DNA from: Candidatus Nanohalobium sp.
GTDB taxonomy: Archaea; Nanohalarchaeota; Nanosalinia; Nanosalinales; Nanosalinaceae
Assembly (NCBI GenBank): GCA_042217545.1
Contig: JBDGSM010000015.1
Span: forward strand, 1-15,190
Length of the DNA stretch: 15,190 nucleotides
Reading direction: 5' to 3'
The translations under genes and the position numbers were made by a program. The notes beneath the pieces were generated by a model, which had not been told where the DNA came from, did no database searches, and was given only the letters and a program-made list of their open reading frames with translations. How positions within the stretch are numbered: the stretch's first letter is position 1; each line of letters opens with the position of its first letter. Positions 112-15,190 of the stretch are shown here, in pieces.

Positions 112-1281
112 TCAGGCATAATACCAGGAGTGCCTGGAAAGTATCTCTTCCATGAGGGTTTGAAGTGCTTCGTCAAGGCCTTCGTCGTGCTTTGCGTCGA
201 TTCCTACTGTCTTGATTCCAAGCTCGTCTTCGATCTCTTGAGGATCGAGAGCATCGTCCATGTTCTGGAAGTTTGCAAGGATGATGAACGGCAGGTCTTC
301 TGCCTCGAGATCCTTCTTCAGCTTTCTTACACGGTCGTAGTTAGGATCTCTTGAGTCCACTACGACGAAGCATCCGAAGATACTTCTTCCTAGGAAGTCA
401 AGCGCCCAGTCGAAACGTTTCTGACCAGGGGTACCGAACAGCTCGGCTTTCAAACCATTTCTCTCCACCTGTCCGTGGTCCAGTGAAACAGTGGTTCCCA
501 GTCGATCAACGGAAACGGCCTCCTGCGACATGTTCTGGACCGTGGTCGATTTACCGGCATCGTAAGGCCCTGTTACAAGCATCTTAGGCACGTACATCAT
601 CAGGCCTTCAGGCGTGATATCAAACGGAACCTTTGTGTCGATGTCGGGCTTCCTGACGTCTATGTATTTCAGTACGATTCCCGATCTTTCAAGGCCTTTT
701 AGGTGTATTACGTAGTCAAATATTTCTTTGAGTCTTTCGATGTCCTGACCGTCCCCTTCCTCGAATCCAAGGTTTGGAAGGAAGTAGTAGTTTACTGCCA
801 GAGTATCGTCTGCCACAGGACCTACTTCGTTGACGAAGTCCTCTACCTCATCCCACTGTCCTGCGAACGTGTCCAGGGAGTCCATCACATAGGTTGTACC
901 CCAGTCCTCGAGGTCTTTGAGGGCCTGTTTGGTCTTCTCCTTTGCCTCCTGTAGGTAGTCGGACCTGTCCTCTTTCAGATCTGTGTCGATCCTGTAGGCT
1001 TCCTCGGACGGCTTGTCAAGCGTCGAGGAGAAACCGTCTATTATCGCTGTATCTCCTTCAGCGCCCTCGGAATCGATCCTTTCTTTGATGTACTGCGGCA
1101 TCCTGTTGTTTACAAAGTAGACAAGATTGTCTCCTTCTCCAAGCCGGTAGTTAACCAGTGCAGAAGCAAACTTGGACTTGTCCACTGCCAGATCGGCAAG
1201 AAACAGAACGTTGGAGCCGTCTTCTACTCCTCCGTCCAGTGCCTCATTAAGTCTTTCCAGCGGCAGTTCTACCTTGGACAT
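112..1281 (-). CDS. Degenerate KaiC/RecA-like domain fused to a C-terminal MglA/CvnD-like small GTPase
   Basis: N-half: LNEALDGG..GSNVL, degenerate Walker A (ADLAVDKS), IIDGFS, YVMDSL, FDYVIHL. C-half: G1 GPYDAGKST, TTVSLDHG, FGTPGQKRF, G4-like ANFQN, G5-like DAK. Start ATG 1281 chosen from TATA spacing. Confidence 0.85.
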   Translation of the reverse strand: MSKVELPLERLNEALDGGVEDGSNVLFLADLAVDKSKFASALVNYRLGEGDNLVYFVNNRMPQYIKERIDSEGAEGDTAIIDGFSSTLDKPSEEAYRIDTDLKEDRSDYLQEAKEKTKQALKDLEDWGTTYVMDSLDTFAGQWDEVEDFVNEVGPVADDTLAVNYYFLPNLGFEEGDGQDIERLKEIFDYVIHLKGLERSGIVLKYIDVRKPDIDTKVPFDITPEGLMMYVPKMLVTGPYDAGKSTTVQNMSQEAVSVDRLGTTVSLDHGQVERNGLKAELFGTPGQKRFDWALDFLGRSIFGCFVVVDSRDPNYDRVRKLKKDLEAEDLPFIILANFQNMDDALDPQEIEDELGIKTVGIDAKHDEGLDEALQTLMEEILSRHSWYYA

Positions 1282-1303
1282 AATCAAAACTCATGTTCCC
1301 CGG

Positions 1304-1311
1304 TTTATAAA
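1304..1311 (-). promoter_or_regulatory. TATA box TTTATAAA for the KaiC-GTPase gene (likely leaderless mRNA)
   Basis: Consensus archaeal TATA box about 23 nt upstream of ATG 1281. Confidence 0.6.
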
Positions 1312-1418
1312 TCTACTTCAAAGTATTTGAAAAACCTTCCAACAACTTGAAAAGGCCTTCAGCAGGACAAAAACAGGTTTAACAGATCTTTGAGATCGAT
1401 AAAACTGTTTGAAGAAAT

Positions 1419-2111
1419 TTATCCGACGTTGATATCTCCTGAGTCGGTTACTTCGTAATCCATCCAGCCTCTACTTGTTTCAGTCTTGTCCATTCTCTGT
1501 ACGGAGATCTTCTGGTCGTCTCCATCCATCTTTGTCTTGATGACTCCGTCCGCTACGTGTTTTATGGTGTTGACTGTTTTATCATCGTGCATGCCGCCTT
1601 CTAGCGTGATAACGAAACATCCTCCCGAACTGGAGCTTTTTGCCCCGACTACCTGGAGGAATTTGACCGCGGACTTTGGATCTGTATAGAGCAGCAGTGT
1701 TGAGGCCGAGTGGATTGCCACACGTTTGGATTCGTTGCCCAGAGCGTTCAGGGCATCCGTAAATGTCATGTTCATCTGGTTAAGGTCTGAGAGGCCGTCA
1801 AGAGCGAACCTTTCGTCGCCGCCTCCTGCCTGCCAGGAATACCCGTCCACGAAGACGATCCTGTCATCGTATTCGGTGAAGTCCCATCCGTAGTACTGGG
1901 CATCGTCTTTTACGTCGTCAGGAGTTCCATCAAGTGTAACATACATTGATTCCTCTCCATTTTCAAGGCCCTGATACACGAACTTGTTAACCAGGGACTC
2001 CTTTGCAGTGCCGTCTGCACCCATTAAGATGATCGTGGAGTTTTCCGGGAAGCCTCCCTCAAGTGCATCGTCGAGGCCTTCGACTCCTGTGCTGACTCTA
2101 TTGTCGCCCAT
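1419..2111 (-). CDS. KaiC/RAD55-like RecA-superfamily protein, catalytically degenerate
   Basis: RVSTGVEGLDDALEGGFP start; Walker A GADGTAKE; Walker B VAIHS; VADGVI motif. Confidence 0.85.
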   Translation of the reverse strand: MGDNRVSTGVEGLDDALEGGFPENSTIILMGADGTAKESLVNKFVYQGLENGEESMYVTLDGTPDDVKDDAQYYGWDFTEYDDRIVFVDGYSWQAGGGDERFALDGLSDLNQMNMTFTDALNALGNESKRVAIHSASTLLLYTDPKSAVKFLQVVGAKSSSSGGCFVITLEGGMHDDKTVNTIKHVADGVIKTKMDGDDQKISVQRMDKTETSRGWMDYEVTDSGDINVG

Positions 2112-2213
2112 TATTGAGATACCTCTATACTGATATTCTGGCCAACTGTTTATAATATCTAACCTTCGGCGGAAAAACCAACTTTAATAGTTTGGACTGA
2201 CCATAGTATCAGT
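2112..2213. promoter_or_regulatory. Divergent promoter region
   Basis: TTTAATA at 2183-2189 (+), about 25 nt before ATG 2214; TTATAAA on the minus strand at 2149-2155; GAGGT SD-like site before ATG 2111. Confidence 0.55.
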
Positions 2214-2942
2214 ATGGTAGAAGTTCCGAGATGCAAGACCGGAATTCAAGGCCTTGACCAGATTCTGAAAGGCGGTATCCCCGAGGAGCATACTGTAGTG
2301 ATCAGCGGGACTTCAGGAGCCGGTAAGACGACTCTGACCACGCAGTTCCTTTATAATGGTGCCAAGAATCACGATGATAAAGGTATTTACTTCACGTTGG
2401 AGGAGCCTGCGAGGAATATCGTCGAGACCAGTAAAAACTTTGGTATGGATTTCGAGAACGATGAAGGTGTCGCAGGAAAGGTTAAGTTCCATGAAGAGCT
2501 GAACCTGATGCGTGAGGGCTCAGGAGGCGAAGTTTTCGAGCCCGACAGGTTTATAGAGGCCTTCAAGAGGCAGATCGAGGAGTTTGATCCTGATCGTGTC
2601 GTTCTTGACTCGATTACTAAGTTTGCGATGGTTTTCGACTCTTCGCCTTTGAGGAGGGAGAAAGTCTCGGAGATCGCCCAGTTCCTCAGGGAGCAGCAGT
2701 GTACAGCTGCTCTTCTGGCTGAGATACCTTATACAGGCGGTGAGAGGCAGGTTTCAAAGTACCAGATCGTGGAGTTCGTGGCTGACGGAGTCATCTTGCT
2801 GGGTAATGAGAGGACGGAGTCCTCCAGGACAAGGACGCTGGAAATCTTCAAGATGCGTAGAACAGATCACTCATCCGACATCCATCCGTTGAAGATCACG
2901 AGCAACGGTATAGTGACGTATCCAAACCAGACAGCTTTCTAG
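2214..2942 (+). CDS. Single-domain KaiC-like ATPase with intact motifs
   Basis: TGIQGLDQILKGGIP, Walker A GTSGAGKT, catalytic LEE, Walker B VVLDS, VADGVI, KMR. Confidence 0.9.
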   Translation: MVEVPRCKTGIQGLDQILKGGIPEEHTVVISGTSGAGKTTLTTQFLYNGAKNHDDKGIYFTLEEPARNIVETSKNFGMDFENDEGVAGKVKFHEELNLMREGSGGEVFEPDRFIEAFKRQIEEFDPDRVVLDSITKFAMVFDSSPLRREKVSEIAQFLREQQCTAALLAEIPYTGGERQVSKYQIVEFVADGVILLGNERTESSRTRTLEIFKMRRTDHSSDIHPLKITSNGIVTYPNQTAF

Positions 2943-3679
2943 GAGCCCGTGGATTCAAGGAGAGCACCTATCACGATACAGAGAGCGCCTATCCCAAACA
3001 GTTTTCCGAAATCCTTCCAGTGCGCCCAGTCAAAGTGCTCCCTGTATACAGCGGCCGACATAAGTGAACCCGAGACACCTGCCAGAATGAAACCGGTCAT
3101 CTCAAAAGTTGCGTGCGGAACATAAGCCAGCGGCGGCGCAGTACCTTTTGTACCGAGGAACGCAGCTGACAGACCGTCCGGAAGCTTGTGAAGAAGATTC
3201 GCCAGGAAGACTCCGAGTACGGAAGCGTTCCAGCTCAAGATAAAAGCCCCTGCAGAACCTGTCACGAACGAAACCAGAGTGATCGCCGCGAAGACACCGA
3301 TATTGTTCACCAGCAGGAATAGAAAGAAGTTAGGTGAAATAGCGGACCCAGAGATACCTGCTCTCAGAGCCTGTGCAGCGAAAAAGTCAGGCTTGAAGTA
3401 TCCAAGACCCAGGAAAGCAACTGCCTGGCCCAGGAAAAGTGCGAAATAACCTGCGATCTCAGGTATATGCGGCGCCCTATCCGCCTCATCGTCAAAGAAG
3501 AAACTTGTCAAAGGATACACAAGAGGAATAGCCGCGAAAATCACGATCAGCATATCGGCCTCCCGCGGATAAATCACCCCCGCGACAATGTAGGCTGCGA
3601 TCACCGAACAAACCCCGAGAAGAGCCAGCAACGGATAATTCCTGTGCTGCTCCTCACGCAGGATCAACTCCGGAAACAT
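2939..3679 (-). CDS. SpoIIM (DUF95)-like multi-pass membrane protein
   Basis: Several hydrophobic helices; NN...NASVLG...PHATFE pattern; stop overlaps the convergent KaiC stop (CTAG). Confidence 0.75.
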   Translation of the reverse strand: MFPELILREEQHRNYPLLALLGVCSVIAAYIVAGVIYPREADMLIVIFAAIPLVYPLTSFFFDDEADRAPHIPEIAGYFALFLGQAVAFLGLGYFKPDFFAAQALRAGISGSAISPNFFLFLLVNNIGVFAAITLVSFVTGSAGAFILSWNASVLGVFLANLLHKLPDGLSAAFLGTKGTAPPLAYVPHATFEMTGFILAGVSGSLMSAAVYREHFDWAHWKDFGKLFGIGALCIVIGALLESTGS

Positions 3680-3738
3680 AACAAGAAAGAAATTAGATAC
3701 AGTCCTTTATCAGGTTACAGGCCCCCCAGGAAAAACCC

Positions 3739-4848
3739 TCAGGGATTAATATCGAACTCGAAGTTCTCCTCGATATAGGCCTCGACCTCATCCTCAACGT
3801 CCTCACGCTTTCTCTGATGCTCTTTCAGAAACTCCTCCAGTCTATCCTTCGCGATCTGCTTCAATTCTCCTGAAAGCATCTCGCCGCTTTCATACTCCTC
3901 TCTGATCCTTGCCAGTTCTTCATCGTCCTCTACCAGGTGGTACGCCAGTAGTTCAAATACCATGTCCTCTTCGATATCCGCGCCTTTCTCCCTATGTTCC
4001 TCAAGAGAGTCCTGGCCGCCGGTCTTCGCCTGATCGATCTTCTTCTTAGCATCTTCGATACTGTCGGTCAACGCAATATAGCTCTTCGGATTACTGCTCG
4101 ACATCTTTCCGCCCTGAAGGCCTCTCATGAACTTGTTGTACGTTGAAGCAGGCTTGATGAAGTCCTGGTCCCTGTACTTGCTTGCGACGTCACGTGTCAA
4201 ACGGATATGAGGATCCTGGTCGACACCGACAGGCACTACAACAGGTTTAGGCCCTCCGTTCTCCGGAAACTGAGGCCTGAGAATATCCGCGTACTGAACC
4301 TGGGCTGCCGACATCTTTCCTGGTTCCGCGCTTCCGTAGGTTGCCTCCATCTCGTTCTGTGTAATATATCTTCCAAAAGTTGTAGCTCTCGCCAGGTGGT
4401 TGTTTCCCGCTTTAGACTGGAAGTAGAAATCTACGTTCTCCAGATCGATTCCGAGCGCTACATAGTTCTTCAGGTATTCCTCAACTACAAGTTCCCTGGC
4501 TTCTTCTAGCGACATGTCCCGCGTGTTGTAGGCCTCGATATCTGCTGCAGCTATAGTTACTTCTGCGCCCATCTCCTGGTACATCTTGATCTGGTCGACG
4601 ACGCATTTATGGCCGAAATGGAAGACTCCTGAAGGCATGATACCTGTCATCATCGCAAATTCTTCATCTTCCTCCTTCGCATCCAGGAAGTCGTCAAGGC
4701 CTCTGTGGCCGAAGATGATGCCTCTGCGGATGAACCTGTGATCCGGAAGTCTATCAGCTACTTCCGCGATCGGTTCGATTCCGAACTTCTCCATTTTCTC
4801 AGAGTAGTTTCCGACCTCTACATCGCCCCAGGGATCAATATCTGCCAT
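3739..4848 (-). CDS. trpS: Tryptophanyl-tRNA synthetase (archaeal type)
   Basis: DPW N-terminus, TGIMPSG..HFGH (HIGH), GVDQDPH, KMSSS. ATG 4848 is preceded by the SD GAGGTGA. Confidence 0.95.
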   Translation of the reverse strand: MADIDPWGDVEVGNYSEKMEKFGIEPIAEVADRLPDHRFIRRGIIFGHRGLDDFLDAKEEDEEFAMMTGIMPSGVFHFGHKCVVDQIKMYQEMGAEVTIAAADIEAYNTRDMSLEEARELVVEEYLKNYVALGIDLENVDFYFQSKAGNNHLARATTFGRYITQNEMEATYGSAEPGKMSAAQVQYADILRPQFPENGGPKPVVVPVGVDQDPHIRLTRDVASKYRDQDFIKPASTYNKFMRGLQGGKMSSSNPKSYIALTDSIEDAKKKIDQAKTGGQDSLEEHREKGADIEEDMVFELLAYHLVEDDEELARIREEYESGEMLSGELKQIAKDRLEEFLKEHQRKREDVEDEVEAYIEENFEFDINP

Positions 4849-4858
4849 ACTGAAAACT

Positions 4859-5629
4859 TCACCTCTCACCTTTTAATTCGTTTTCAGGTTTACGACCTCT
4901 GAAACCCAGGATCTCATCGTATCCATCCGTCGACATCAGAACCGGGTAAAAGGCCTCCTCCGCATTCAGTTCTTCATCCTCGTTCTCAGCGTACTTCTCA
5001 CCTTTCTCGACTTTCTCGAAGTTCTGGGCCAGGAACTCATAGTTTCCAGGCACAGCTTCGTACATCTCGAAGATCTCAGGCCTTTCCACAGGTTTCTCGC
5101 GGTCGATAGCGCCAAAGCAGGCCAGGAAGTTCAGTAATACTTCGTAGGCGTTTTCCTCAGCTTCCTCAGTGCCGACCTCGCCCACCTCAACAGAAACTGC
5201 GTCAAGATACTTCTCGACGCTGTCCTTATCAAGCGGGGCGACATCCACAGCTCTATCGACCCCGGGAGCGGTGACAAGATCTTCATCAACTGTATTGACG
5301 AGGCAGAAGGCCTCGTCGAACTCCGTCATGGAGTGTATAGTCAGCGATTTGAGGCCTTCAAGCTCCTCCATAAGTTTTGCGGCGAGTCTCTCCTCGTGGC
5401 TGTTGCTTTCAGGATCTCCGGGGAAGCAGCGGTTCAGATCAGTATCTATGAATCTTTCTCCCTGTTCCCTCGCTTCTTCGTTCGCCACTATGAACTTGAC
5501 AGGCTTCTCCAGCTTGAAATTGCCCTCCAGGAATCTTTCTACCGCTTTACTGCCGCAGACCTCGTCTCCGTGTACTGCTGCGACCACTGCTATCTCAGGT
5601 TCGCCAGGACCTTTCTCCACGACTCTCAA
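4859..5629 (-). CDS. Succinylglutamate desuccinylase/aspartoacylase (M14-like Zn hydrolase), paralogue 1
   Basis: HGDE, DLNRCFPG, IHS, SVEVG. TTG start with SD AGGAGGTGA overlaps the trpA stop. Confidence 0.85.
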   Translation of the reverse strand: MRVVEKGPGEPEIAVVAAVHGDEVCGSKAVERFLEGNFKLEKPVKFIVANEEAREQGERFIDTDLNRCFPGDPESNSHEERLAAKLMEELEGLKSLTIHSMTEFDEAFCLVNTVDEDLVTAPGVDRAVDVAPLDKDSVEKYLDAVSVEVGEVGTEEAEENAYEVLLNFLACFGAIDREKPVERPEIFEMYEAVPGNYEFLAQNFEKVEKGEKYAENEDEELNAEEAFYPVLMSTDGYDEILGFRGRKPENELKGER

Positions 5630-6390
5630 GACCTCTCACCTCCTACGGTTTCAGAGACCTCTGAAGCCAGTTCTTCGACTCCTTCAAGGCCTTCATCAGT
5701 GTATGCATCGATTATAGCGCTTCCCATGATGACGCCGTCCGCTCCTGCGTTCAGGGCTTTCTCTGCGTGTTCGGAGCTGGAGATCCCGAAACCTATGCAT
5801 CTTGGGACGTCGAGGCCTTCCGTTTTCTCCATCAGCTCCTCTGTCTTATCCGAGAAGCTGCTCCTTGCTCCTGTAGTTCCTTTGACTGCGACGATGTAGG
5901 CGAAGCCTTGGGTCAGCTCTCCTATCTCTTCTACACGTTCCTCTGGCGTGTTCTGTCCTATGAGGAAGATCTGGTTCACGTCCGTATCTAACTCGCCGAT
6001 CTCCTCCCCGTACATCTCAGGCGGCATGTCAGGAATGATGAGGCCGTTCACCCCTGCTTCTTCCGCAGCCTCAAAGAAGGCCTCGTATCCGTACCTCCTG
6101 ACTGTATTCGCATACGCAAGCAGAACAATGGGCGTGTCTGGGAACTCCGAGGCAACCTCCAGCACGTCGTCCGCAGTTATATCGTGTTCAAGGGCTTCCA
6201 TATCTGCTTCTGTTATCGTAGGGCCGTCAGCCATCGGATCGCTGAAAGGAACACCTAACTCGACGATATTAGCCCCGCTATCGACCAGAGTCTCTACTAT
6301 CTCCTTCGAGGTTTCTTTGTCCGGGTATCCTCCGACTGTGAAAGGCATGAAGGCCTCTCCATTTTCAAATACTTCTTCAATCGAAGTCAA
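5626..6390 (-). CDS. trpA: Tryptophan synthase alpha subunit
   Basis: [38 protein letters not shown] start with SD GGAGGTGG inside the trpB 3' end. Confidence 0.96.
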
Positions 6391-7531
6391 GGCCTTCCAC
6401 CTCCGCTACAGTATGCATATCCTTGTCTCCACGGCCTGAGAGGTTTACAAGGATCTTGTCGTGTTCATCCGCCAGTTCCTTTGCGAGGGCGACTGCGTGA
6501 GCAGATTCCAGTGCCGGTATGATGCCCTCGGTTTCTGATAGATCGGTGAAGGCCTCCATCGCTGCTTTGTCGTTCACTGCGAAGTAATCTGCTCGTTCCA
6601 TCTCGCTGAGGACGGAGTGTTGCGGTCCTACTCCCGGGTAGTCGAGGCCTGCGGAGACCGATTCTGCTTCCTCTATATTTCCTGAGTCGTCCTGCAGGAA
6701 GTAGGATTTGAATCCCTGGAAGATTCCGACCTCTCCCTGCGATATGCTGGCTGCGTTTCCTTCTTCGTTGCCTCCGGCCTCTGCTCCATACATCGCGACT
6801 TCTTCGTCTTCTACGAATTCGTGGAAGAGGCCTATAGCGTTAGATCCTCCTCCAACACATGCGACAAGTGCATCCGGAAGCTCATCTTCTCTTTCGAGGA
6901 ACTGTTCGCGGGCTTCCTCTCCTATGACCTGCTGGAAGTATCTCACTATCTCCGGGAATGGATCAGGGCCTACTACACTTCCTATCAGGTAATGCGTGTC
7001 TTCGGAGTTCGCGACGTAGTCCTGTATTGCTGCGTTGACCGCATCCTTCAGGGTTTTCGCGCCCTGGTCGACAGGCTTAACTTCCGCACCGCATTTCTCT
7101 ATCCTGAGTGCGTTCATCTTCTGTCTTTCCACGTCTTTCCTGCCCATGTAGATCTCTACCTCCATATCGAAGTAGGCACCGACCATCGCTGTTGCGATAC
7201 CGTGCTGCCCAGCTCCTGTCTCTGCGATGAGTCGTTCCTTTCCCATCTTCTTCGCTAGCAAGGCCTGACCCAATGTATTGTTGATCTTGTGGGCGCCGCC
7301 GTGCAGAAGATCCTCTCTCTTCAGGTAGATCTCTGCTCCGTATCTTTCTGAGAGGTTTTCGGCCCTGTAGACTGAGGTAGGCCTTCCTGCGAACTCTTTC
7401 AGGTGTTTCTCGAACTCTTCTCTGAATTCCTCGCTGTTTCTGGCTTCCTCGAACTCTTCTTCCAGTTCTTCGAGTACCGGTACGAGTAGTTCTGGTACGT
7501 ATTTTCCGCCGAACTCTGTCATCTGTTCCAT
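6377..7531 (-). CDS. trpB: Tryptophan synthase beta subunit (TrpB1 type)
   Basis: [19 protein letters not shown] (PLP Lys), [26 protein letters not shown] 7531 preferred because SD AGGTGA overlaps the upstream TAG; GTG 7543 is an alternative start. Confidence 0.97.
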
Positions 7532-7543
7532 CTTTCCCTTCAC

Positions 7544-7924
7544 CTAGAACTGGTACATCCCAGGGTTTTGTTCCTGTTGGTTTCCTTCCAGCACCTGTTC
7601 AGCTTTCTCCACGAGACCCAGGTTCGAGGCCTGATCCTCAGCCACGGAAGGGAAGTTCTCCGCGTAGAACTCGTTGATAGCTTCCTCAGCGTGCTCCATC
7701 GCGAGGTAGATCTCGGACTCCTGCTCGTCAAGCATCTCCTCGTTCAGTTCCAGGTCTATGAACTCCTCATTCAGAACACCGTCGTAAGGAGCGACTTCAA
7801 CCGTTCCTATCTCCTGGTCGAGGCCTTCGTGGTAGAGAGAAAACTCCTTTGCCCCTTGATACTTTGGGCTTAAAGCTGTACTGTTATCTAGAGGTTTTGC
7901 GTGTATGTTTCCAAAAGCGTCCAC
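7544..7924 (-). CDS. Unknown acidic, Trp-free protein; probably the +1-frame part of a 141-aa product starting at ATG 7970
   Basis: Halophile-like composition; abuts trpB; annotated start is a GTG lying inside the repeated cassette; frame is +1 relative to leader 7884-7970. Confidence 0.7.
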   Translation of the reverse strand: MDAFGNIHAKPLDNSTALSPKYQGAKEFSLYHEGLDQEIGTVEVAPYDGVLNEEFIDLELNEEMLDEQESEIYLAMEHAEEAINEFYAENFPSVAEDQASNLGLVEKAEQVLEGNQQEQNPGMYQF

Positions 7925-7970
7925 CCTTCTGCAGGGATTCGGTCGTAGCGTGTTGTGTGTCGTAGCTCAT
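7884..7970 (-). CDS. Leader ORF L1, 28 aa: MSYDTQHATTESLQKGGRFWKHTRKTSR
   Basis: First ATG after the BRE/TATA at 8005-8018; single Trp codon in TTT-TGG; motif shared with L2 and L3. Confidence 0.65.
   Translation of the reverse strand: MSYDTQHATTESLQKGGRFWKHTRKTSR
7905..7931 (-). repeat. 27-bp direct repeat, copy 1 (CAGAAGGGTGGACGCTTTTGGAAACAT)
   Basis: 26/27 identical to 8231-8257; core also present at 13011-13029 (+). Confidence 0.95.
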
Positions 7971-8004
7971 ATCTTTCACGTATCCCAATAATACGCAGGA
8001 AAAT

Positions 8005-8018
8005 TTTAAATACCTTTC
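8005..8018 (-). promoter_or_regulatory. BRE/TATA (GAAAGG-TATTTAAA) for the trp unit
   Basis: Consensus-like archaeal promoter about 35 nt upstream of ATG 7970. Confidence 0.6.
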
Positions 8019-8182
8019 AGGCCTCAACAGAGGCTATAAGCGGCATAGATAGCTCTAGAGGTTTTAATTCTGGCAGAAATTCCTGAAAAAGATGTAGGTA
8101 GGCCTTTCAGTTGGTCAGCCATGAGAAATTTTTCACTGAAGCGATCTGGAGATAGGTACGGCTCAGGTGATATGTCTTCGCA

Positions 8183-8263
8183 TCAGGCCTTGGAGCCTGC
8201 TGCTCCTGCATCTCTTCCATGCGGAGAGAGATGTTTCCAAAAACGTCCACCCTTCTGAGCCAT
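8183..8263 (-). CDS. Leader ORF L2, 26 aa: MAQKGGRFWKHLSPHGRDAGAAGSKA (+1 frame open to TGA ending at 8107)
   Basis: ATG places the repeat in the same frame as in L1; the only repeat mismatch (CGT/CGC) is synonymous. Confidence 0.5.
   Translation of the reverse strand: MAQKGGRFWKHLSPHGRDAGAAGSKA
8231..8257 (-). repeat. 27-bp direct repeat, copy 2 (CAGAAGGGTGGACGTTTTTGGAAACAT)
   Basis: 26/27 identical to 7905-7931. Confidence 0.95.
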
Positions 8264-8287
8264 AAAAAGTTAGTAGGGGGTGAACTG

Positions 8288-9049
8288 TTAAAATTCTTTC
8301 TTCTTCCCTTTGAACCCGATCATATCCTCATAACCATCGGTTGACATAAGGACCGGACAGAAACTTTCTGAGGCCTTTTTGACGTTTTCCCTGTTTTCGG
8401 CGTATTTCTCTCCTTTTTCGAGTGGTACGAAGTTCTCCGCCTTGAATTCGTAGTTTTCTCCTTTTGCTCTGTCGTAGACCTCGAAGACTTCTGGTTCCGA
8501 TCGATCGTATTTTTGATCTATTACTCCTTCAGCGGCGAGTAAGTTGAGCAGTATCTGGCAGGTCATCTGCGCTGATTGCGGGCTTGCGTCAGGTCCTGCC
8601 TCGACAGTGACGCCGTTGAGGTGGTTGATCATTCCTCCCTCCACGTAGGAGATCTCGACAAGGTTCTCCATGCAGGTATGTCTCGCCAGTTCGTATGTTT
8701 CCTCCGTAAGGCCTGAAACGATGGCGAAAGGAGTTTTCGGAGACTCAGAGGAATGGAAGTCTATTACTTTGAGGCCTTCAAGCTCCTCCAGAAGCCTTGC
8801 CGCCAATCTCTCCTCATGACTGTCACTATCCCCATCTCCCGGAAATGCATGGTTCAGATCTCTGTCTATGTAGCGTTCTCCTCTGTAGAAGGCTTTTTCG
8901 TTGGCAAGGATGAACTTTACCGGTTCGTTGAGGCCTATCGCTTCTCTCTTGAACCTTTCGAAGGCCTTGAGACCACAGGGTTCGTCTCCGTGGATACAGG
9001 CCACGATAGCTATTTCCGGCTCTCCCTGTCCCAGGACTTCTGTCTTCAT
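8288..9049 (-). CDS. Succinylglutamate desuccinylase/aspartoacylase-family hydrolase, paralogue 2
   Basis: HGDEPCG, DLNHAFPG, DFHS, TVEAG, PVLMSTDGY; alignable end to end with 4859-5629. ATG 9049 has SD CAGGTGAG. Confidence 0.88.
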   Translation of the reverse strand: MKTEVLGQGEPEIAIVACIHGDEPCGLKAFERFKREAIGLNEPVKFILANEKAFYRGERYIDRDLNHAFPGDGDSDSHEERLAARLLEELEGLKVIDFHSSESPKTPFAIVSGLTEETYELARHTCMENLVEISYVEGGMINHLNGVTVEAGPDASPQSAQMTCQILLNLLAAEGVIDQKYDRSEPEVFEVYDRAKGENYEFKAENFVPLEKGEKYAENRENVKKASESFCPVLMSTDGYEDMIGFKGKKKEF

Positions 9050-9144
9050 TTTCTCACCTGTTGAAGGCCTTTTCCTGGTTTTCGAGATGTTTCGAGGATG
9101 TGAAGTCGTTTTTGTGGTAGTTGGATGTTTGTTCACCTTGTAGT

Positions 9145-9318: not shown

Positions 9319-9340
9319 TATATCGCCGTAGAAGGCCTTC

Positions 9341-10267
9341 CTACTGTTTCAGGTCTAGCTCTTCTCTGGCCAGTTCTACTGCTTCTTCATAGCTATTCAG
9401 GGCCTTCACCGTGTCCTTCGGTGAGTGATAGATGTCCAGTACCTCGTGGTACTCCGATGCCACGAACTTGACTTTGTCCTCGTAGCCCTCAGTATTCAGG
9501 ACTATAGCTTTCTCCACAATCTCAGGATTTTCTATGACTTTCTGGGAGTTTCTCCCCAGCGAATCTGCAAGGAAGATTTCTTCTGCTCCCTTTATCTGCT
9601 CGATGTATTCATCCTCGAACCTTCTGTAACCGTAGCAGTGGTACGGTTTTTCCTGTGATATTTCCTCAGCTCCAGCAAATACTACAAGGTTCTCCTCCAG
9701 GTCCAGTTCGTCCAGTAACTCAATAATGAGGCTGACCGTGAACCCATTGTCAATGAAGCCTCCCCAGGTGCTGTCGTAATGAGTCAAAATTATCCTGTCG
9801 GGATCCTCCTCGTTTCCTACAAGGATATTCCGGGATTCATGGCTGACCCATTCGACCTCGAGATAACCCTCGACTTCATCCGCTCTTAATACTTTTTCCA
9901 CGTCTTCGGGGCTGATGGCGACTGAAGGAGCCTCGTAGAAGTTCGGAACTGAAATTCCGTCCGCATACGGGTTAAAGTTGATGTTAGGCCTGTTCATAGA
10001 TCCCTGACCGTTCAAGATAGAGTTTACCAGGGCCTTGGACTCGATCTTTCCAGATTCAAGGCCTGAAGGCAGACAACGAATCTCTTCTCCGTCGGCTTCC
10101 AGACCCCAGTCCCTGAAATCCGGTACGAGTATCTGAAAGGCCTGAGTACTGTAATCATATTCAGATATCTCTTCCTCTATCAGTTCCGCTGCTTTTTTCT
10201 CGTCTTCGAGCTGTCTCGGGGCCAGATCCGCGAGCCTTGAGGCCCTCTGTACAACTTCTTCTTTCAT
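9341..10267 (-). CDS. M28-family Zn metallopeptidase
   Basis: THYDS, IDN, AEE, ADSLG and YHSPKD metal-ligand motifs. Confidence 0.85.
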   Translation of the reverse strand: MKEEVVQRASRLADLAPRQLEDEKKAAELIEEEISEYDYSTQAFQILVPDFRDWGLEADGEEIRCLPSGLESGKIESKALVNSILNGQGSMNRPNINFNPYADGISVPNFYEAPSVAISPEDVEKVLRADEVEGYLEVEWVSHESRNILVGNEEDPDRIILTHYDSTWGGFIDNGFTVSLIIELLDELDLEENLVVFAGAEEISQEKPYHCYGYRRFEDEYIEQIKGAEEIFLADSLGRNSQKVIENPEIVEKAIVLNTEGYEDKVKFVASEYHEVLDIYHSPKDTVKALNSYEEAVELAREELDLKQ

Positions 10268-10276
10268 AGTTTTTAT

Positions 10277-11413
10277 TCACCTCAGAGCCATGTTAAGGAT
10301 TTGCTCTGTGACGTCCTCGAAACTCTCGGACCTCAGATCAGCTGACTGGATCTCTTCCCTTTTCTGCTGTGAAGGGTAGAGATTGAGGACCATGCCGTTT
10401 TTCTTGAGGCTTGAAGAGCCCCCGAACCTTGTGTCGTTCAGTTCCTCCATCACATAGCTGGGAACTCTGGCGTGGTAATCATCCTCAGAAGATACATCTA
10501 TGAACGGGAAGCTTTCGAGGCCTTCCTGATGAGCCTGTCTCTCAAGCTCATCAGTATTCTCTGTCCTGAACTTTCCGTTGTCAAGGCCTCTGAGCATGTA
10601 ACCGACATCCTGATGAACTGCTGAGGGAAAGACCAGCGTTTCATAGTTGACCTCCGGAGGGAGTATACCCTCCTGTGAGGCCTCTTCCGTGGATAAAGTG
10701 ATGTCTCTGCGGTCGTCCAGCGATTCGTAGGTCTCTGTCCTCGGATCGTACTTCATTCCTACAATTTTGCCATCTGCGTCCTCGTATCCCAGGACTTCAG
10801 GCTCTTGTCCATGTTTAATCATCTGGTCTATCATGCTTCTCTGGATCTCTGTGAAGTCTCCTCTCGTCTGGACCAGAGGCGTCTCCAGGCTATCGTGGAG
10901 TTCTCTCAGGTTCGAGGCCTCGGCATCCGCTCCAAGCATCTCCTCTACGATCTGATCCGAGTTATCTCTCAAATTAACTTCGTGGGAACCGACGCTGTAA
11001 CCGTCCTGAATATCAGTCACCTGAGTAGACCAGAGGCCTTCCTCGGTAGAAACCACTGGCATCGCGTATCCTCTCTTCTCCGCGTTCCGCCCGTACATCT
11101 TATCTGTCAGAGGAGCACCTACGACGCTGTAATTTTCTATTTCTCCCTGTTCCTGCAGTTGATCACCTAACATACTTGCTACTTCCTGCATAGATATCTG
11201 CTCGACTGTCGAAGCCGGCTGCTGACGCGGGATAACGAAAGTGTAATCATCTTCAGCGTCCATCACCCCCGCATCCTCATAGGCCTCACGCAACCAATCT
11301 GCATCAACCTCTTCAAGGCCTATGTTATCGTAGTGCTGATCTATGAGAGCTTCTACATCTTCCTGTTTTGACTGTTCGTAGACCTGTTCGAACTCTGAGG
11401 AGTTTCTTATCAT
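10277..11413 (-). CDS. Hypothetical acidic protein, 378 aa
   Basis: Long ORF with halophilic composition, 9 nt from the M28 gene; no family recognised. Confidence 0.8.
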   Translation of the reverse strand: MIRNSSEFEQVYEQSKQEDVEALIDQHYDNIGLEEVDADWLREAYEDAGVMDAEDDYTFVIPRQQPASTVEQISMQEVASMLGDQLQEQGEIENYSVVGAPLTDKMYGRNAEKRGYAMPVVSTEEGLWSTQVTDIQDGYSVGSHEVNLRDNSDQIVEEMLGADAEASNLRELHDSLETPLVQTRGDFTEIQRSMIDQMIKHGQEPEVLGYEDADGKIVGMKYDPRTETYESLDDRRDITLSTEEASQEGILPPEVNYETLVFPSAVHQDVGYMLRGLDNGKFRTENTDELERQAHQEGLESFPFIDVSSEDDYHARVPSYVMEELNDTRFGGSSSLKKNGMVLNLYPSQQKREEIQSADLRSESFEDVTEQILNMALR

Positions 11414-11740: not shown

Positions 11741-12910
11741 TTAGTTTTTCAAGGCCTCTACCGCTGCCAGTTTCTCCCCGCTCATATACCTTACGAAGGC
11801 TCCTCCGGCTATGGATACATGTGAGAAATCCTTGATTTCGTGGTCAAACCTGTGTACAAGCGAGGAAGTGTGTCCTCCTCCTATGACCGTGAAGGCGTCG
11901 TTCCCTGCCATCGCACCTACTACTGCTTTACTTCCGTTTTCATGTCCCTGGTCGAACGCTCCCATGGGGCCTTTCATCACGACTGAATCGGCGTCCTCTA
12001 TGGCTTTCACGTATTTTGCCTGGGTCTTCTCCCCGATATCCCAGGTCATCTCATCCTCCGGAACTTCTCCGACTTCGTAGTTGCCGGAACGGGTTCTGAC
12101 GTCCTCGGGGATCATGATCTTTTCGCCATGGTTTTCAAGCATCTCTTTCAGCTCCGAGGCCTTGGAGTCGAATCCTTTCTCTTCTATCCAGTTTTCCTTT
12201 TTTCCAAGGCTTTCTCCCTGTATTGTCAGCGCTAGTTCTCCCGGTATTCCTCCCAGGAGGACTTTGTTGACGTCTTCGATCATTTCCCCCATCATGCCAA
12301 TTATATCCGAGGGCTTCTCGCCTCCGAGAACCAGTAGGCCTTCGTCGAACTCGTCCCGCACTTTTCCACAGCTTTCAAGCTCTCTCTGCATGATAGGTCC
12401 TGCGTAGCTGTCGATAAGTTCGGTAAATCCTACCATGGAGCCATGGCTTCTGTGTGCAGCGGAGAATGCATCGTCGACGTAAACGTCGAAGTAACAGACC
12501 ATGTTCTGTACAAAGAAATCCTGTGAGTGTTTCTCCGGCGAGGCGTTCTGCAGTTCCTCTGAGAGAAATCTTATGTTTTCAAGCATGCAGAGGTCCCCGT
12601 TGCCCATTGAAGCTATAGCATCGCCGAGGTGGGGGCCGAAAAAGCTCTGTACAAAGTTGACGTCCTGACCCAGGGACTCGGAAAGAAGCTGTGCATGTTC
12701 CTCAAGTGAAAGAAAGTCCTTCCTTGCAGGCCTTCCCTGGTGTGCCACGATCATCGTCCTGGCACCTGCGTCACTGAGCTCCTTTATGGTTTCAAGGTAT
12801 CTCTTGAACCTGACTGTCTTCTGGGGCTCCCCGTCCTCTACAGGAAGATTTAGATCAGTCCTCAGGAGTACGTTTTTGCCCTCAAGTTCAGCATCTTCAA
12901 TAGTATTCAC
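11741..12910 (-). CDS. pgk: Phosphoglycerate kinase
   Basis: LRTDLNLP, AHQGRP, LENIRF, DAFSAAHR, GGGHT, HVSIAGGA. Likely start GTG 12910 (MNTIEDAELEGK), with TATA-like ATTAAAAA at about 12946-12953. Confidence 0.95.
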   Translation of the reverse strand: MNTIEDAELEGKNVLLRTDLNLPVEDGEPQKTVRFKRYLETIKELSDAGARTMIVAHQGRPARKDFLSLEEHAQLLSESLGQDVNFVQSFFGPHLGDAIASMGNGDLCMLENIRFLSEELQNASPEKHSQDFFVQNMVCYFDVYVDDAFSAAHRSHGSMVGFTELIDSYAGPIMQRELESCGKVRDEFDEGLLVLGGEKPSDIIGMMGEMIEDVNKVLLGGIPGELALTIQGESLGKKENWIEEKGFDSKASELKEMLENHGEKIMIPEDVRTRSGNYEVGEVPEDEMTWDIGEKTQAKYVKAIEDADSVVMKGPMGAFDQGHENGSKAVVGAMAGNDAFTVIGGGHTSSLVHRFDHEIKDFSHVSIAGGAFVRYMSGEKLAAVEALKN

Positions 12911-12999
12911 AGGCAACCACTGTAATACGATGTAATACTTCCAGGTTTTTAATGTTACCACAGAGGAAGAGCTTTTAACGTTCAAGGCCTCAAAACTTG

Positions 13000-13056
13000 A
13001 TGATACCAATGAAAGGTGGACGTTTTGGACTGCAGTCAAATGCAGTCGCACGGTAG
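13000..13056 (+). CDS. Leader ORF L3, 18 aa: MIPMKGGRFGLQSNAVAR
   Basis: TTTTAA at 12973-12978 fits a leaderless start at ATG 13000; shares KGGRF with L1 and L2. Confidence 0.5.
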   Translation: MIPMKGGRFGLQSNAVAR

Positions 13057-13067: not shown

Positions 13068-13129
13068 CCGAAACTTCTGTGAAGTTTCTCATGACCAGAA
13101 ACTCTGCGAGTTTCGGATTTTCAAAATCC
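13068..13129 (+). promoter_or_regulatory. Cluster of inverted repeats upstream of glyS, possible RNA switch
   Basis: GAAACTTC-TGT-GAAGTTTC (13070-13088), GAAACTC-TGC-GAGTTTC (13098-13114), GGATTT-TCA-AAATCC (13115-13129). Confidence 0.6.
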
Positions 13130-13171
13130 TCTAGTTCTGACTATAAAAATTTCCAGTTCGGTGCTTGATCT

Positions 13172-14896
13172 ATGGACAATCTTACTGAAAAGATAGCCGA
13201 GCTGTCGAAAAGGCGTGGTTTCTTCTTCCAGAGCAGCGAAGCTTATGGTGGCGTTTCAGGTTTCCAGACCTTCGGACCTGAAGGCGCAGAAGTCAAGAGA
13301 AAGATCGAAAACTCGTGGAGAGAAACTTTCTCCCGCTCACTCGGGCACAGAGAGATAGAAGCTCCGACAATCATGCCAGAGGAGGTTTTCAAGGCCTCAG
13401 GCCATCTGGATACGTTCGACGACATGATAATCGAGTGTCCGGAGTGCGAGAACTCTCATAGAGCCGATCACCTGGTAGAGGACAATACAGAGATCGAGGA
13501 AGCTGAATCTTTCTCACATGAACAGGTGGAGGCCTTGATCAAGGAGCACGACCTGGTCTGTCCGAGCTGCGGCGAGAGCCTCTCCGATGTACCGGTTGAG
13601 GATTTCAACCTGATGTTTGAGACCTCGATAGGTCCTGGAAGCGGCGAACCAGGCTATCTCAGGCCTGAAACTGCACAGGGAATCTTCGTGGAGTTCCCAC
13701 GGCTGAAAGAATACGCACGGAACCAGTTGCCTTTCGGTATCACCCAGATCGGAAAGGCCTACAGAAACGAGATAAGTCCGAGAAAAGGCCTTGTCCGTGT
13801 ACGTGAACTGACTCAGGCGGAGCTGGAGCATTTCATCGATCCTGAGGAGGACGAGCCTCCGATCGAGGATGTTGAACACGTGGAGGTCAAGCTGTACTCC
13901 CGTGAGGAACAGAAGGCTGAAGATGGAGAGGTAGTCAAGATAACGGTCAGAGAGGCCGTTGAAGACGAAGTCGTCGAGTCTGACTGGATCGCGTACTATC
14001 TAGGTATCGCGAAGCAGTGGTACGAGTCGATCGGCGTGGACATGGACCGGTTCAGGTTCAGGCAGCATCAGAACGACGAGCTTTCTCATTACGCCAGCGA
14101 TTGCTGGGATGCAGAGGCAGACACAAGCGCACCCGGTGCCCAGCCCGACTGGATCGAGATAACCGGTTTCGCCTACAGAGGCTGTTACGACCTCAAGAAG
14201 CACAATAAGTACTCCCGCGAGGACTATACTATCTTCAAGGAGTACGACGAGCCGAGGACAGTAGAGAAAAACACGGTCAGCCCAGACATGGGCTACTTAG
14301 GCCCTGAGTTCGGTGATAAAGCGGGCGAGATTAAAGAAAAGCTGGAGGAACTGGCAGAGGAGAATCCTGAGGCCTTTGAAGCCGACAAGGTCCTGGTCGA
14401 GGTCGATGGCGAGGAGTTCTCGATTCCGGAGGAGAAATGTAACTTTTCAGTCGACGAGGTTACTGAGAACGGTGAGCGCATTCTTCCTCAGGTTGTCGAG
14501 CCTTCGTTCGGTATCGACAGGATTGTCTACACGGTTCTGGCCCATGCTTTCGATGAGGACGAGGTGAACGGCGAGGAACGTACAGTTCTACGCCTGAATG
14601 AAGAGGTCGCACCGACTGAAGTAGCTGTCTTCCCTCTTATGGACAAGGAAGGCCTCGGCGAGAAAGCTCGTGAAGTAGCATCTATGCTGCGGAACGAAGG
14701 TTTCTCCGTCAAGTACGATGACACAGGCAACATCGGTAAGCGTTACAGGCGGCAGGACGAGGTCGGCACACCTGTCTGCGTAACGATTGATTACGAGACA
14801 CTGGAGGACGAGCCCGAGACCGTGACCGTCAGGGACAGGGATTCAACGGAACAGAAACGTGTAGAGATCGATGATCTAGCTGAGCGCCTGAGATAG
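13172..14896 (+). CDS. glyS: Glycyl-tRNA synthetase (alpha2, archaeal/eukaryotic type)
   Basis: KRRGFF, ASGH, YLRPETAQG, YRNEISPR, EPSFGIDR, IGKRYRRQDEVGTP anticodon-binding domain. Confidence 0.97.
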   Translation: MDNLTEKIAELSKRRGFFFQSSEAYGGVSGFQTFGPEGAEVKRKIENSWRETFSRSLGHREIEAPTIMPEEVFKASGHLDTFDDMIIECPECENSHRADHLVEDNTEIEEAESFSHEQVEALIKEHDLVCPSCGESLSDVPVEDFNLMFETSIGPGSGEPGYLRPETAQGIFVEFPRLKEYARNQLPFGITQIGKAYRNEISPRKGLVRVRELTQAELEHFIDPEEDEPPIEDVEHVEVKLYSREEQKAEDGEVVKITVREAVEDEVVESDWIAYYLGIAKQWYESIGVDMDRFRFRQHQNDELSHYASDCWDAEADTSAPGAQPDWIEITGFAYRGCYDLKKHNKYSREDYTIFKEYDEPRTVEKNTVSPDMGYLGPEFGDKAGEIKEKLEELAEENPEAFEADKVLVEVDGEEFSIPEEKCNFSVDEVTENGERILPQVVEPSFGIDRIVYTVLAHAFDEDEVNGEERTVLRLNEEVAPTEVAVFPLMDKEGLGEKAREVASMLRNEGFSVKYDDTGNIGKRYRRQDEVGTPVCVTIDYETLEDEPETVTVRDRDSTEQKRVEIDDLAERLR

Positions 14897-14905
14897 AGGC
14901 CTCAA

Positions 14906-14932
14906 TTCCTTTTCTTCTCTTTATCTTTCATT
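14906..14932 (+). terminator. Pyrimidine/T-rich tract after glyS, possible terminator
   Basis: TTCCTTTTCTTCTCTTTATCTTTCATT about 10 nt after the stop. Confidence 0.4.
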
Positions 14933-15007
14933 AACTGCTGGAAGGCCCTGCTTCACAGCATTTTTAATTTTTAGACAGGCCTAAACTTTTCCAGTGATTC
15001 GATCCAG

Positions 15008-15190
15008 ATGTCGATGAGAGAAGTTATAGAAGAGCTTGAACAGGGCTGTACGCGGGGACGTTACAGAGAAGAGATACTAGAATATGCGGAGGACGTTGAG
15101 GAGTACTTTGATTCTTTTGAGGACGCCGCCGAGTTTGTGAAGGCCTATGAGAGCGAGTATGATGTGAGGAATCCTAACTTTGACCCCGAG
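15008..15190 (+). CDS. Partial hypothetical acidic protein (MSMREVIEELEQG...)
   Basis: 61 open codons to the window end; acidic composition. Confidence 0.7.
   Translation, partial: MSMREVIEELEQGCTRGRYREEILEYAEDVEEYFDSFEDAAEFVKAYESEYDVRNPNFDPE

Follow-up and report, generated by a model that had tools for sequence, protein, structure and literature searches.

AGGCCT, a highly iterated palindrome that saturates genes and spacers in a subset of nanohaloarchaeal genomes

The palindromic hexanucleotide AGGCCT occurs far more often than composition predicts in a 15,190-base contig of Candidatus Nanohalobium sp. (JBDGSM010000015.1, assembly GCA_042217545.1; this whole stretch is referred to below as the window) and throughout the genome to which that contig belongs, and we regard it as a DNA-level word that a lineage-specific force has written into nearly every position tolerant of it. 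Exactly 63 copies lie in the window, the first at 176-181 and the last at 15141-15146, or one per 241 bp, making AGGCCT its most frequent hexamer (the runner-up is present 33 times). Set against a zero-order expectation of 3.63 and a mean of 3.87 in 200 dinucleotide-preserving shuffles (standard deviation 1.98, maximum 10, none reaching 63), this is a 16-17-fold excess. The original prediction, made by a model from the letters of the window, had estimated about 63 copies, roughly one per 240 bp and about 15-fold above expectation, and the exact figures bear these estimates out. It had also placed the copies in all reading frames, as is indeed the case: 55 of the 63 fall within 13 of the 14 long open reading frames (ORFs), on 7, 23 and 25 occasions in frames 0, 1 and 2 (encoding RP, [EK]A.. 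and xGL, respectively), whilst the other eight lie outside long ORFs, at 1353, 8019, 8100, 8185, 9333, 14897, 14977 and 15141. Five of the seven sites it called non-genic (1353, 8019, 8100, 9333 and 14977) are correctly so described, whereas 9065 and 12985 lie within ORFs taken at their longest, and 8185, 14897 and 15141 had been omitted.

The excess is a property of the genome and is not confined to the window. The source genome (G000; 1,032,751 bases in 82 contigs, 92% complete, with the window as its contig C7) holds 3699 copies in 1.03 Mb where composition predicts 243, a 15.2-fold excess that again makes AGGCCT the top hexamer. The runners-up, AAGGCC and GGCCTT, overlap it and reach half its count, and the next palindrome is only 2.3-fold above expectation. 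Among 6377 occurrences of GGCC, 58% are part of AGGCCT, with 106 in TGGCCA, 72 in CGGCCG and 39 in GGGCCC. Density is even across the 12 contigs longer than 20 kb, and the flanking bias is mild (A 41% at -1, T 42% at +6). Extension towards GAAGGCCTTC, previously described as frequent, turned out to be rare (1 of 63 window sites; 52 of 3690 genome-wide); the form AAGGCCTT accounts for 10 of 63 and 625 of 3699 sites, and the enriched word is the plain hexamer AGGCCT. Flank preference depends on lineage, being for AAGGCCTT in the genus of the source genome (g1) and for GAGGCCTC in the relative G003, which fits a plain 6-mer read against differing codon backgrounds. Another relative, G019, shows elevated half-words as well, AGGCCN and NGGCCT standing at about 3.3-3.5 times expectation. 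The maximal-order Markov observed/expected ratio (O/E) of AGGCCT is 1.11, but this does not count against the excess, since AGGCCT itself inflates its pentamers AGGCC and GGCCT.

Coding does not account for the pattern. A crude gene set for the source genome (1055 ORFs, 85.5% of the sequence) gave one site per 287 bp in genes and one per 262 bp elsewhere, i.e. in spacers, and the spacers of the complete relative G001 contain 4.44 sites per kb, an O/E of 27. Shuffling synonymous codons within each gene of G000 gave an expectation of 586±17 sites compared with 3054 seen, so that a five-fold excess survives the codon correction that the original prediction had recognised as critical. All three frames contribute, with 562, 1036 and 1456 sites in frames 0, 1 and 2 against 132, 210 and 244 in the synonymous shuffles (4-6-fold each), and shuffling of codon order left only 292±17 sites. 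The same preference is apparent in individual peptides: 562 of 788 RP dipeptides are written AGG CCT where codon usage predicts 103, and 1456 of 2407 xGL tripeptides are written nnA GGC CTn where it predicts 163. For practical purposes, an artefact of codons, peptides or RNA is excluded.

The extent of saturation can be gauged from slots, defined here as places where the protein permits AGGCCT synonymously, namely RP, [EKQ]A[CFLSWY] and xGL with an x able to end in A. Slot occupancy in frames 0, 1 and 2 is 71, 61 and 70% in G000, 76, 68 and 78% in G001, 83, 73 and 73% in G003 and 53, 53 and 64% in G019, as against 0, 3 and 3% in the word-poor relative G021. The slots themselves are also more numerous: in the same orthologue sets, G000 and G021 have 147 versus 75, 348 versus 215 and 390 versus 260 (1.5-2.0-fold), and the dipeptides RP, GL and KA have O/E values of 1.45, 1.31 and 1.35, compared with 0.83, 0.98 and 0.76 for the reversed dipeptides. 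Because compatible slots and dipeptides are enriched on both comparisons, the force that writes AGGCCT has altered amino acids and not codons alone.

Sites are retained in place among the rich relatives. Those of G000 are kept at 438 of 659 positions in G001, 203 of 512 in G003 and 181 of 558 in G019, where identical hexamer windows overall, which serve as the control, amount to 20, 11 and 12%; in the word-poor G021 only 8 of 575 are kept. At positions where both genomes of a pair have a slot, the probability of a site in one given a site in the other is 0.56-0.90, and given an empty slot it is already 0.25-0.71. Positional conservation of AGGCCT owes much to saturation.

A census of AGGCCT in 70 genomes of the order, with the reversed word TCCGGA as control, identified 12 rich genomes, one weak and 57 at background. 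The rich genomes are G000, G001 and G002 in genus g1 (3699, 4489 and 2691 copies), G022, G047, G048 and G049 in g21 (3249, 2095, 1481 and 2850), G019, G058 and G059 in g18 (2478, 1803 and 1554) and G003 and G023 in g2 (4131 and 3601), with densities of 2-4.7 per kb. The weak genome, G046, belongs to g21 (762 copies), and the remaining 57 hold 32-892 copies, including all 20 genomes from the four other families of the order. Genus g2 is split between the two rich species and four at background (G060-G063, 232-404 copies), and because one genus divides in this way the trait is labile. A spread within genera is also seen at lower levels (G018 55 versus G051 497 copies; G021 97 versus G055 892). 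The poor G021 is slightly closer to G001 than are the rich G003 and G019 (mean identity differences of -2.4 and -1.8 points; 240 and 234 proteins). An unrooted tree of 29 orthologues (9872 amino acids, five genomes) has the topology ((G000,G001),(G003,G019),G021) with 100% support for both splits, and is silent on whether the rich genomes form a clade. As a separate observation, G021 strongly avoids GGCC (256 copies in 400 kb), and words one letter away from AGGCCT that contain GGCC have O/E values of 0.19-0.46 there. G021 and G017 (73 copies of AGGCCT) are among the lowest in the family and each possesses a C5 methylase of about 340 amino acids; a HaeIII-like GGCC restriction-modification system would explain these findings.

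Within a rich genome the sites are evenly spread at large scale. Windows of 5 kb in G001 contain 20.1±5.0 sites, compared with a Poisson standard deviation of 4.5, and the only poor stretches are four of low GC content (0.41-0.45), at 487-492, 803-808, 875-881 and 889-897 kb, three of which contain several strain-specific genes. The islands at G001:C1 487001-492000, 803001-808000 and 889001-897000 (GC 0.41-0.44) have 6-10 sites where 20-30 are expected. Strain-specific genes occur there in runs, as does a type IIG-like restriction-methylase gene, and the islands were probably acquired recently. Densities in G001 are 3.83 per kb in core genes, 4.35 in genus-specific genes and 3.25 in genes found in G001 only. 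The most conserved stretch that does not resemble protein-coding sequence (85.6% identical), probably 23S rRNA, shows no enrichment, with four sites in G001 and three in G021. Sites are evenly placed along G001 genes, except that the first 20 bp of ORFs are low (47 versus about 95 per 20-bp bin); the 20 bp following stop codons form a peak (173 versus about 95), and site 14897 in the window occupies the same kind of position.

At short range, AGGCCT sites interfere with one another below about 50 bp in four genomes, most of the advantage of a site being lost beside such a neighbour, which is a new finding of this analysis. Gaps of less than 10 bp in G000 number 12 where 130 are expected (0.09), and O/E then rises through 0.53 (10-20 bp) and 0.63 (20-30 bp) to 0.80 (30-50 bp); very long gaps of 800-1500 bp are also depleted (0.68), and the coefficient of variation of the gaps is 0.95. 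Conditioning the test on slots removes coding constraint, and the depletion persists. Neighbouring slots separated by 6-12 bp are jointly occupied at 0.31, 0.40, 0.26 and 0.33 of the frequency expected under independence in G000, G001, G003 and G019, respectively, and in G003 this corresponds to five pairs, the minimum in 200 permutations being 11. The ratio is 0.53-0.72 at 12-30 bp, 0.72-0.98 at 30-50 bp and 1.0-1.2 beyond 50 bp, and occupancy is 0.71-0.80 for isolated slots versus 0.48-0.53 for crowded ones (G000 and G001). Interference of this kind is expected from diminishing returns per short tract or footprint, or from avoidance of hairpins between two self-complementary copies, whereas a per-site mutational bias is disfavoured because it predicts none.

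The neighbours of AGGCCT that differ by one letter carry further information. Those keeping GGCC are 3.8-13 times commoner in rich genomes than in G021, and words with a broken core are, once normalised, less frequent than in G021 by 13-32%. No signature of deamination repair was found in the spectrum normalised to G021, transitions among the core-breaking words (0.78 and 0.82) being no more depleted than transversions (0.68-0.87). At G000 sites, the most frequent G021 counterpart is AGGACT (34 of 575), from which an A-to-C change is needed.

In a search for the gene responsible, none of the families and candidates examined tracked the trait. C5 methylases (PF00145) are present in 9 of 41 genomes but in none of G000, G001, G002, G003, G019 and G023, and PF01555 is above cut-off in 10 of 41, of which the sole rich one is G019, with a 603-amino-acid type III Mod-like frame. 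Strong PF02384 matches are confined to HsdM-like genes of G003 and G019. None of five genomes gave PF02086, Vsr, MutS, ComEC (PF03772) or DprA (PF02481), and NucS is present in the rich G001, G003 and G019 as well as in the poor G021. A weak methylase match in G000 proved to be a THUMP-UPF0020 tRNA methylase. Scanning for (D/N/S)PP(Y/F/W) together with S-adenosylmethionine motif I recovered housekeeping RNA and protein methylases, plus one small methylase that word-poor genomes have too. The specific methyltransferase link put forward in the original prediction thus receives no support from gene content, as genes of PF00145, PF01555, PF02384 and PF02086 and type IIG-like genes all fail to track the trait; its other suggestions, a tie to repair or to chromosome organisation, may hold.

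A subtractive set was assembled from genes shared by G000 and G001 with no tblastn match in the complete word-poor G021, giving 211 genes on the G000 side and 229 on the G001 side. Within the latter, 218 could be referenced within one locus and 217 were scanned against Pfam, a 3224-amino-acid ORF (L149:8541-18215) being left out; about 130 of the 217 have no Pfam family. Tests of twelve candidates from the rich genus, in between 5 and 70 genomes, yielded none that follows the trait. Further candidates are an MPG glycosylase, an Ogt/ATL-like protein, EndoIV, an AAA_15 ATPase and a C2H2 protein. Most word-poor genomes also have the Toprim protein, g344 is in 38 of 41 genomes, g235 is in the word-poor G005, G007, G016 and G020, and the Methyltransf_25 gene g600 is in the word-poor G017, G005, G018, G024 and G007. 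The type IIG-like (Eco57I/MmeI-like) gene g457 of G001 has a 56%-identical homologue in the poor G021 and none in G000. The PadR gene g394 is present in word-poor G061 and missing from rich G023, and g668 is missing from G019, G058 and G022. The phyletic pattern of the AsnC gene g151 does not track the trait; g420, g841 and the SPEARE-adjacent gene g409 failed the same test, and an HhH Ogg-like glycosylase bears no relation to the trait across relatives. An outlier scan for proteins unusually alike among rich genomes returned metabolic genes and PadR only. A changed specificity of a universal protein, or a factor supplied by the host, would escape an approach based on gene presence and absence.

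By analogy with the uptake sequences of bacteria, we tentatively favour molecular drive, exerted by an AGGCCT-specific putative DNA-handling protein, over ordinary selection at each of some 4000 sites. Such a protein, probably dimeric, would give word-carrying alleles an advantage in transmission, acting either when genome copies undergo gene conversion or recombinational repair with one another or when DNA passes from cell to cell, and a single AGGCCT per short tract would suffice. Drive is favoured because about 4000 sites, individually of almost no value, persist at 70-80% occupancy, at an amino-acid cost and in small symbiont genomes, because sister species manage without the word, and because the syndrome of the DNA uptake sequences (DUS) and uptake signal sequences (USS) of bacteria matches in its doubled peptides, high conservation, poor islands of probably foreign origin, tract-linked spacing and independence of a methylase. 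A number of points weigh on the other side. The determinant was not found, and the twelve candidates failed. Neither ComEC nor DprA was detected in five genomes, and the literature examined contains no record of DNA exchange among nanohaloarchaea. DUS and USS are 9-12 bp in length, non-palindromic and present about once per kb, whereas AGGCCT is a palindrome of 6 bp present four times per kb. At 3.25 sites per kb, genes specific to strain G001 come close to its core genes (3.83 per kb), whereas uptake sequences are reported to be absent from recently acquired genes, and the interference between sites could reflect avoidance of hairpins between paired self-complementary copies. The tests made here do not separate drive from selection. 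A bolder proposal, which we consider a long shot, is that AGGCCT is the first archaeal kin-DNA signal, DNA being exchanged or imported through machinery other than that of competence, with an AGGCCT-specific step that favours word-carrying DNA. Were this true, the word would be propagated by drive, would reshape the proteome and would delimit communities of exchange, and its presence in four genera, but in only two of six species of one of them, would be due to the reader gene having spread horizontally.

We prefer molecular drive to a model of selected binding sites, which we regard as doubtful. Here an abundant dimeric protein, serving in nucleoid organisation, the marking of own DNA or loading for replication or segregation, would require a site to be kept about every 250 bp, with sites inside a single footprint of about 30-50 bp being redundant. 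Equal density in genes and spacers despite their very different freedom, near-Poisson or tighter counts in 5-kb windows, the shortage of gaps of 800-1500 bp together with the coefficient of variation of 0.95, and the short-range interference in four genomes are all as this model would have it, and a palindrome of 6 bp is typical of the sites bound by dimers. The benefit of each site would, however, be about 1/4000 of the function, which should be hard to maintain in small symbiont populations, the more so at a cost in amino acids; sister species in the same genus do without AGGCCT, and the lineage-variable DNA-binding proteins examined (PadR and AsnC) fail to track the trait. Methylation of the HIP1 type, in which an orphan methylase or modification enzyme (of an unrecognised family, or supplied by the host) marks AGGCCT or GGCC and a methyl-directed repair ratchet or methyl-dependent function accumulates the word, seems to us unlikely. 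Cyanobacterial HIP1 and alternative highly iterated palindromes (HIPs) accompany cognate orphan methylases (PMC4390886), transfer of a methylase from a nanohaloarchaeon to its host, i.e. in the symbiont-to-host direction, has been proposed (PMC11001535), and the large share of genus-specific proteins without a Pfam family could harbour such an enzyme. Yet no C5, N4/N6, D12 or Eco57I-type methylase tracks the trait, the motif scans yielded only the housekeeping enzymes and the one small methylase common to word-poor genomes, core-breaking neighbours are depleted equally for transitions and transversions, and Elhai's MutS/MutL-based model is inapplicable because MutS is in none of the five genomes, NucS being found in rich and poor alike. 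In the nanohaloarchaeal methylome literature examined, only GDGCHC methylation is reported, from one strain.

Two further explanations carry little weight beside molecular drive. The word might arise, functionless, from context-specific mutation or repair resembling the very-short-patch (VSP) pathway, if a T:G enzyme correcting deaminated methylcytosine, or a polymerase bias, pushed near-cognates towards AGGCCT. The rarity of core-breaking neighbours is in keeping with this, and an archaeal pairing of a GGCC methylase with a T:G glycosylase exists in Methanothermobacter (M.MthTI and Mig.Mth). We nevertheless judge it very improbable: transitions are not specifically depleted, the top G021 counterpart AGGACT calls for A-to-C transversions, Vsr is in none of five genomes and PF00145 is missing from the six rich genomes examined, the HhH Ogg-like glycosylase fails to follow the trait, independent bias at each site predicts no interference, and the effect of E. 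coli Vsr is far weaker than 15-27-fold. As both the genes and the mutational signature are missing, VSP-type repair and orphan-methylase models are disfavoured, and a classical methyltransferase coupled to VSP-type repair is not the engine. Hardly credible at all is the idea that AGGCCT follows from the usage of codons, codon pairs or amino acids, or that it serves transcripts as a signal at the RNA level. The Markov ratio of 1.11 might be quoted in its favour, were it not explained by the inflated pentamers, and a palindrome gives the same RNA word from both strands, so that strand symmetry alone does not exclude RNA; however, spacers are as rich as genes or richer, all three frames exceed synonymous shuffles, G021 orthologues with the same peptides have 0-3% occupancy, and the rRNA-like region is unenriched.

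The genes of the window are of housekeeping type (a GTPase, two KaiC-like ATPases, a Trp/Tyr-tRNA synthetase, trpA, a trpB-like gene, phosphoglycerate kinase (PGK), a class II tRNA synthetase and two AstE/AspA-like genes), and gaps between successive site starts range from 31 bp to 1220 bp (2557 to 3777). The sites are as follows.

176..15146, no strand: the AGGCCT array, 63 copies by exact count
176..697: sites 176, 602 and 692, all frame 2 (xGL), in ORF 112-1287 (minus), small-GTPase-domain protein
1353..1358: spacer site between ORFs 112-1287 and 1419-2111
2074..2079: frame-2 site of ORF 1419-2111 (minus), KaiC-like ATPase
2249..2562: sites 2249 (frame 2) and 2557 (frame 1) in ORF 2214-2942 (plus), KaiC-like ATPase
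3777..4702: sites 3777, 4118, 4273, 4530 and 4697 (frames 1, 2, 0, 1 and 2) in ORF 3739-4869 (minus), class I Trp/Tyr-tRNA synthetase
4951..5357: sites 4951, 5078, 5308 and 5352 in ORF 4859-5629 (minus), AstE/AspA-like protein
5687..6356: sites 5687, 5813, 6078 and 6351 in ORF 5626-6390 (minus), tryptophan synthase alpha
6390..7384: sites 6390, 6550, 6645, 6828, 7261 and 7379 in ORF 6377-7543 (minus), pyridoxal phosphate enzyme, probably tryptophan synthase beta
7627..7826: sites 7627 and 7821 in ORF 7544-7924 (minus), 126 amino acids, no Pfam family
8019..8024: spacer site in spacer 7925-8287
8100..8105: spacer site in spacer 7925-8287
8185..8190: spacer site in spacer 7925-8287, missing from the original prediction
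8371..9070: sites 8371, 8709, 8772, 8931, 8962 and 9065 in the longest ORF 8288-9136 (minus), AstE/AspA-like protein
9333..9338: spacer site between ORFs 8288-9136 and 9341-10267
9986..10143: sites 9986, 10059 and 10138 in ORF 9341-10267 (minus), 308 amino acids, no Pfam family, no G021 homologue
10518..11321: sites 10518, 10584, 10678, 10915, 11034, 11281 and 11316 in ORF 10277-11413 (minus), 378 amino acids, no Pfam family, no G021 homologue
11752..12990: sites 11752, 12157, 12336, 12728 and 12985 in the longest ORF 11741-13051 (minus), PGK
13392..14655: sites 13392, 13530, 13661, 13755, 13786, 14370 and 14650 in ORF 13172-14896 (plus), class II aminoacyl-tRNA synthetase
14897..14902: site beginning at the first base past the stop codon of ORF 13172-14896
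14977..14982: 3′ spacer site
15141..15146: site close to the end of the window, in none of the listed ORFs

Site 9065 may be upstream of where ORF 8288-9136 truly begins. The same probably holds for site 12985 and the PGK start, since this ORF has 436 amino acids where the database PGKs listed have 384-429, most of them 386-392. The largest gap (2563-3776) spans the whole of a SpoIIM-like membrane protein gene, ORF 2939-3679 (minus), the sole site-free ORF of the 14. The adjoining genes for 308 and 378 amino acids (9341-11413, minus) have G001 counterparts that are 82% and 70% identical. Elsewhere in the source genome, the counterpart of a 355-amino-acid G001 protein of unassigned function is broken into three frames at G000:C26:36492-37447 and is probably a pseudogene. 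At G000:C67:12916-17883 an RNA polymerase subunit B-like gene forms a single frame of 1665 amino acids, which the 1162-amino-acid G001 protein matches in two blocks (1-939 and 911-1162); the insertion of about 500 amino acids is probably an intein, and similarly long frames (1648-2162 amino acids) are found in G007, G017, G020, G011, G018, G028 and G032.

Two salt-lake sequencing runs from one study contain the window as contigs. None of the 40 differences listed (there are 71 further ones) falls in a site, where about one would be expected, so that the comparison has no power. Depth over the word, summed across the contigs, those of other organisms among them, is about 280-780 in the two runs. 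The contigs are otherwise identical to the window, with dense patches of difference at 6366-6370, 7001-7061, 7157-7241, 7726-7790 and 9908-9917, of which the patch at 7726-7790 has 10 differences in 65 bp and lies 255 bases from a contig end; these patches may be short tracts of recombination between strains, or assembly bubbles near contig ends. A scan of IMG/VR for three sites at 70-100 bp spacing gave at least 122 stretches, the top matches being tandem repeats. Among the matches listed, no locus of at least 4 kb exceeds 2.8 sites per kb, and only L224, with 0.83 sites per kb, matches G001 at the protein level, weakly so (about 33% identity); the scan is uninformative on the viruses of these hosts. 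The IMG/VR loci L269, L292 and L295 have tandem repeats with AGGCCT in the repeat unit, e.g. 33 copies in 1402 bases, and are unrelated to the genome-wide pattern.

We found no open-access paper on over-representation of AGGCCT in nanohaloarchaea or in any archaeon. What is new here is the order-wide census with its split within a genus, the distance-dependent interference in four genomes, the spectrum of neighbours normalised to a poor relative, and the negative gene tests. The case shows that a force acting at the level of DNA can rewrite codon choice and roughly double certain peptides in the proteome of a reduced symbiont, which is relevant to codon models, to work on dN/dS (the ratio of non-synonymous to synonymous substitution rates) and to the binning of these lineages. 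It also has practical advantages, in genomes of about 1 Mb with roughly 1000 genes, a plain 6-mer, extreme saturation, natural on/off contrasts within one family, and even one genus, and the existence of cultivated nanohaloarchaeal co-cultures, genomes of cultivated strains having been published (PMC10266531, PMC11001535). Together these should make the cause findable by comparative genomics with a methylome and a pull-down.

Three known systems invite comparison. Dcm and Vsr of E. coli constitute a VSP repair pathway, a sequence-specific repair bias able to enrich a methylated palindrome, but neither a C5 methylase nor Vsr was found in the richest genomes here, the neighbours show no transition-specific depletion and the effect is an order of magnitude larger; the GGCC core is shared with M.MthTI/Mig.Mth. 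Neisserial DUS and pasteurellacean USS are, like AGGCCT, lineage-specific words in core genes that are highly conserved and have encodable peptides about doubled (PMC2817400, PMC2397512): such peptides are some two-fold enriched in the proteome (Findlay and Redfield, 2009, PMC2817400) and the spacing of DUS agrees with conversion-fragment length (Treangen et al., 2008, PMC2397512). Spacing tied to tract length, freedom from the need for a methylase and the fit of a molecular-drive explanation are also common to both, and the poverty of the four low-GC stretches of G001, most of them with strain-specific genes, may parallel that of foreign islands in DUS and USS. DUS and USS, however, belong to bacteria with known competence machinery and receptors, whereas in AGGCCT genomes ComEC and DprA were not found and the sources examined record no DNA uptake. 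AGGCCT would work most like an uptake or recombination signal, yet it is not a member of the DUS/USS class, being of the wrong length, symmetry and density and lacking competence genes.

As a phenomenon AGGCCT is a HIP, and the 'HIP1-like' label of the original prediction was a fair one. It resembles HIP1 (GCGATCGC) and alternative HIPs, such as GGCGCC in Calothrix PCC 7103, in being a palindrome at least 15-fold over expectation (PMC4390886, PMC5861425). Further features in common with HIP1 are presence in all frames and, at equal density here, in spacers, independence of codon and peptide usage, conservation in place above that of control words and a patchy distribution among close relatives. 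Spacing may be a further resemblance, the short-range interference and gap variation described above being non-random and the periodicity reported for HIP1 lying at 10-100 kb. The two differ in that AGGCCT is an archaeal 6-mer with a GGCC core, whereas HIP1 is cyanobacterial with a GATC core, and in that HIP1 accompanies DmtA/DmtC, whereas for AGGCCT, judged from sequence, neither a cognate methylase gene nor MutS was found. Cyanobacterial HIPs reach about 0.3-2.7 per kb (PMC4390886, PMC5861425) compared with 2-4.7 per kb for AGGCCT, whose saturation is higher and comes with a clearly remodelled proteome. A role as an uptake sequence, or one akin to Chi, has now been proposed for HIP1 (PMC13756078; bioRxiv 10.1101/2024.09.10.611283). 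The role of HIP1 has been debated for three decades, and AGGCCT provides an independent second case from another domain of life.

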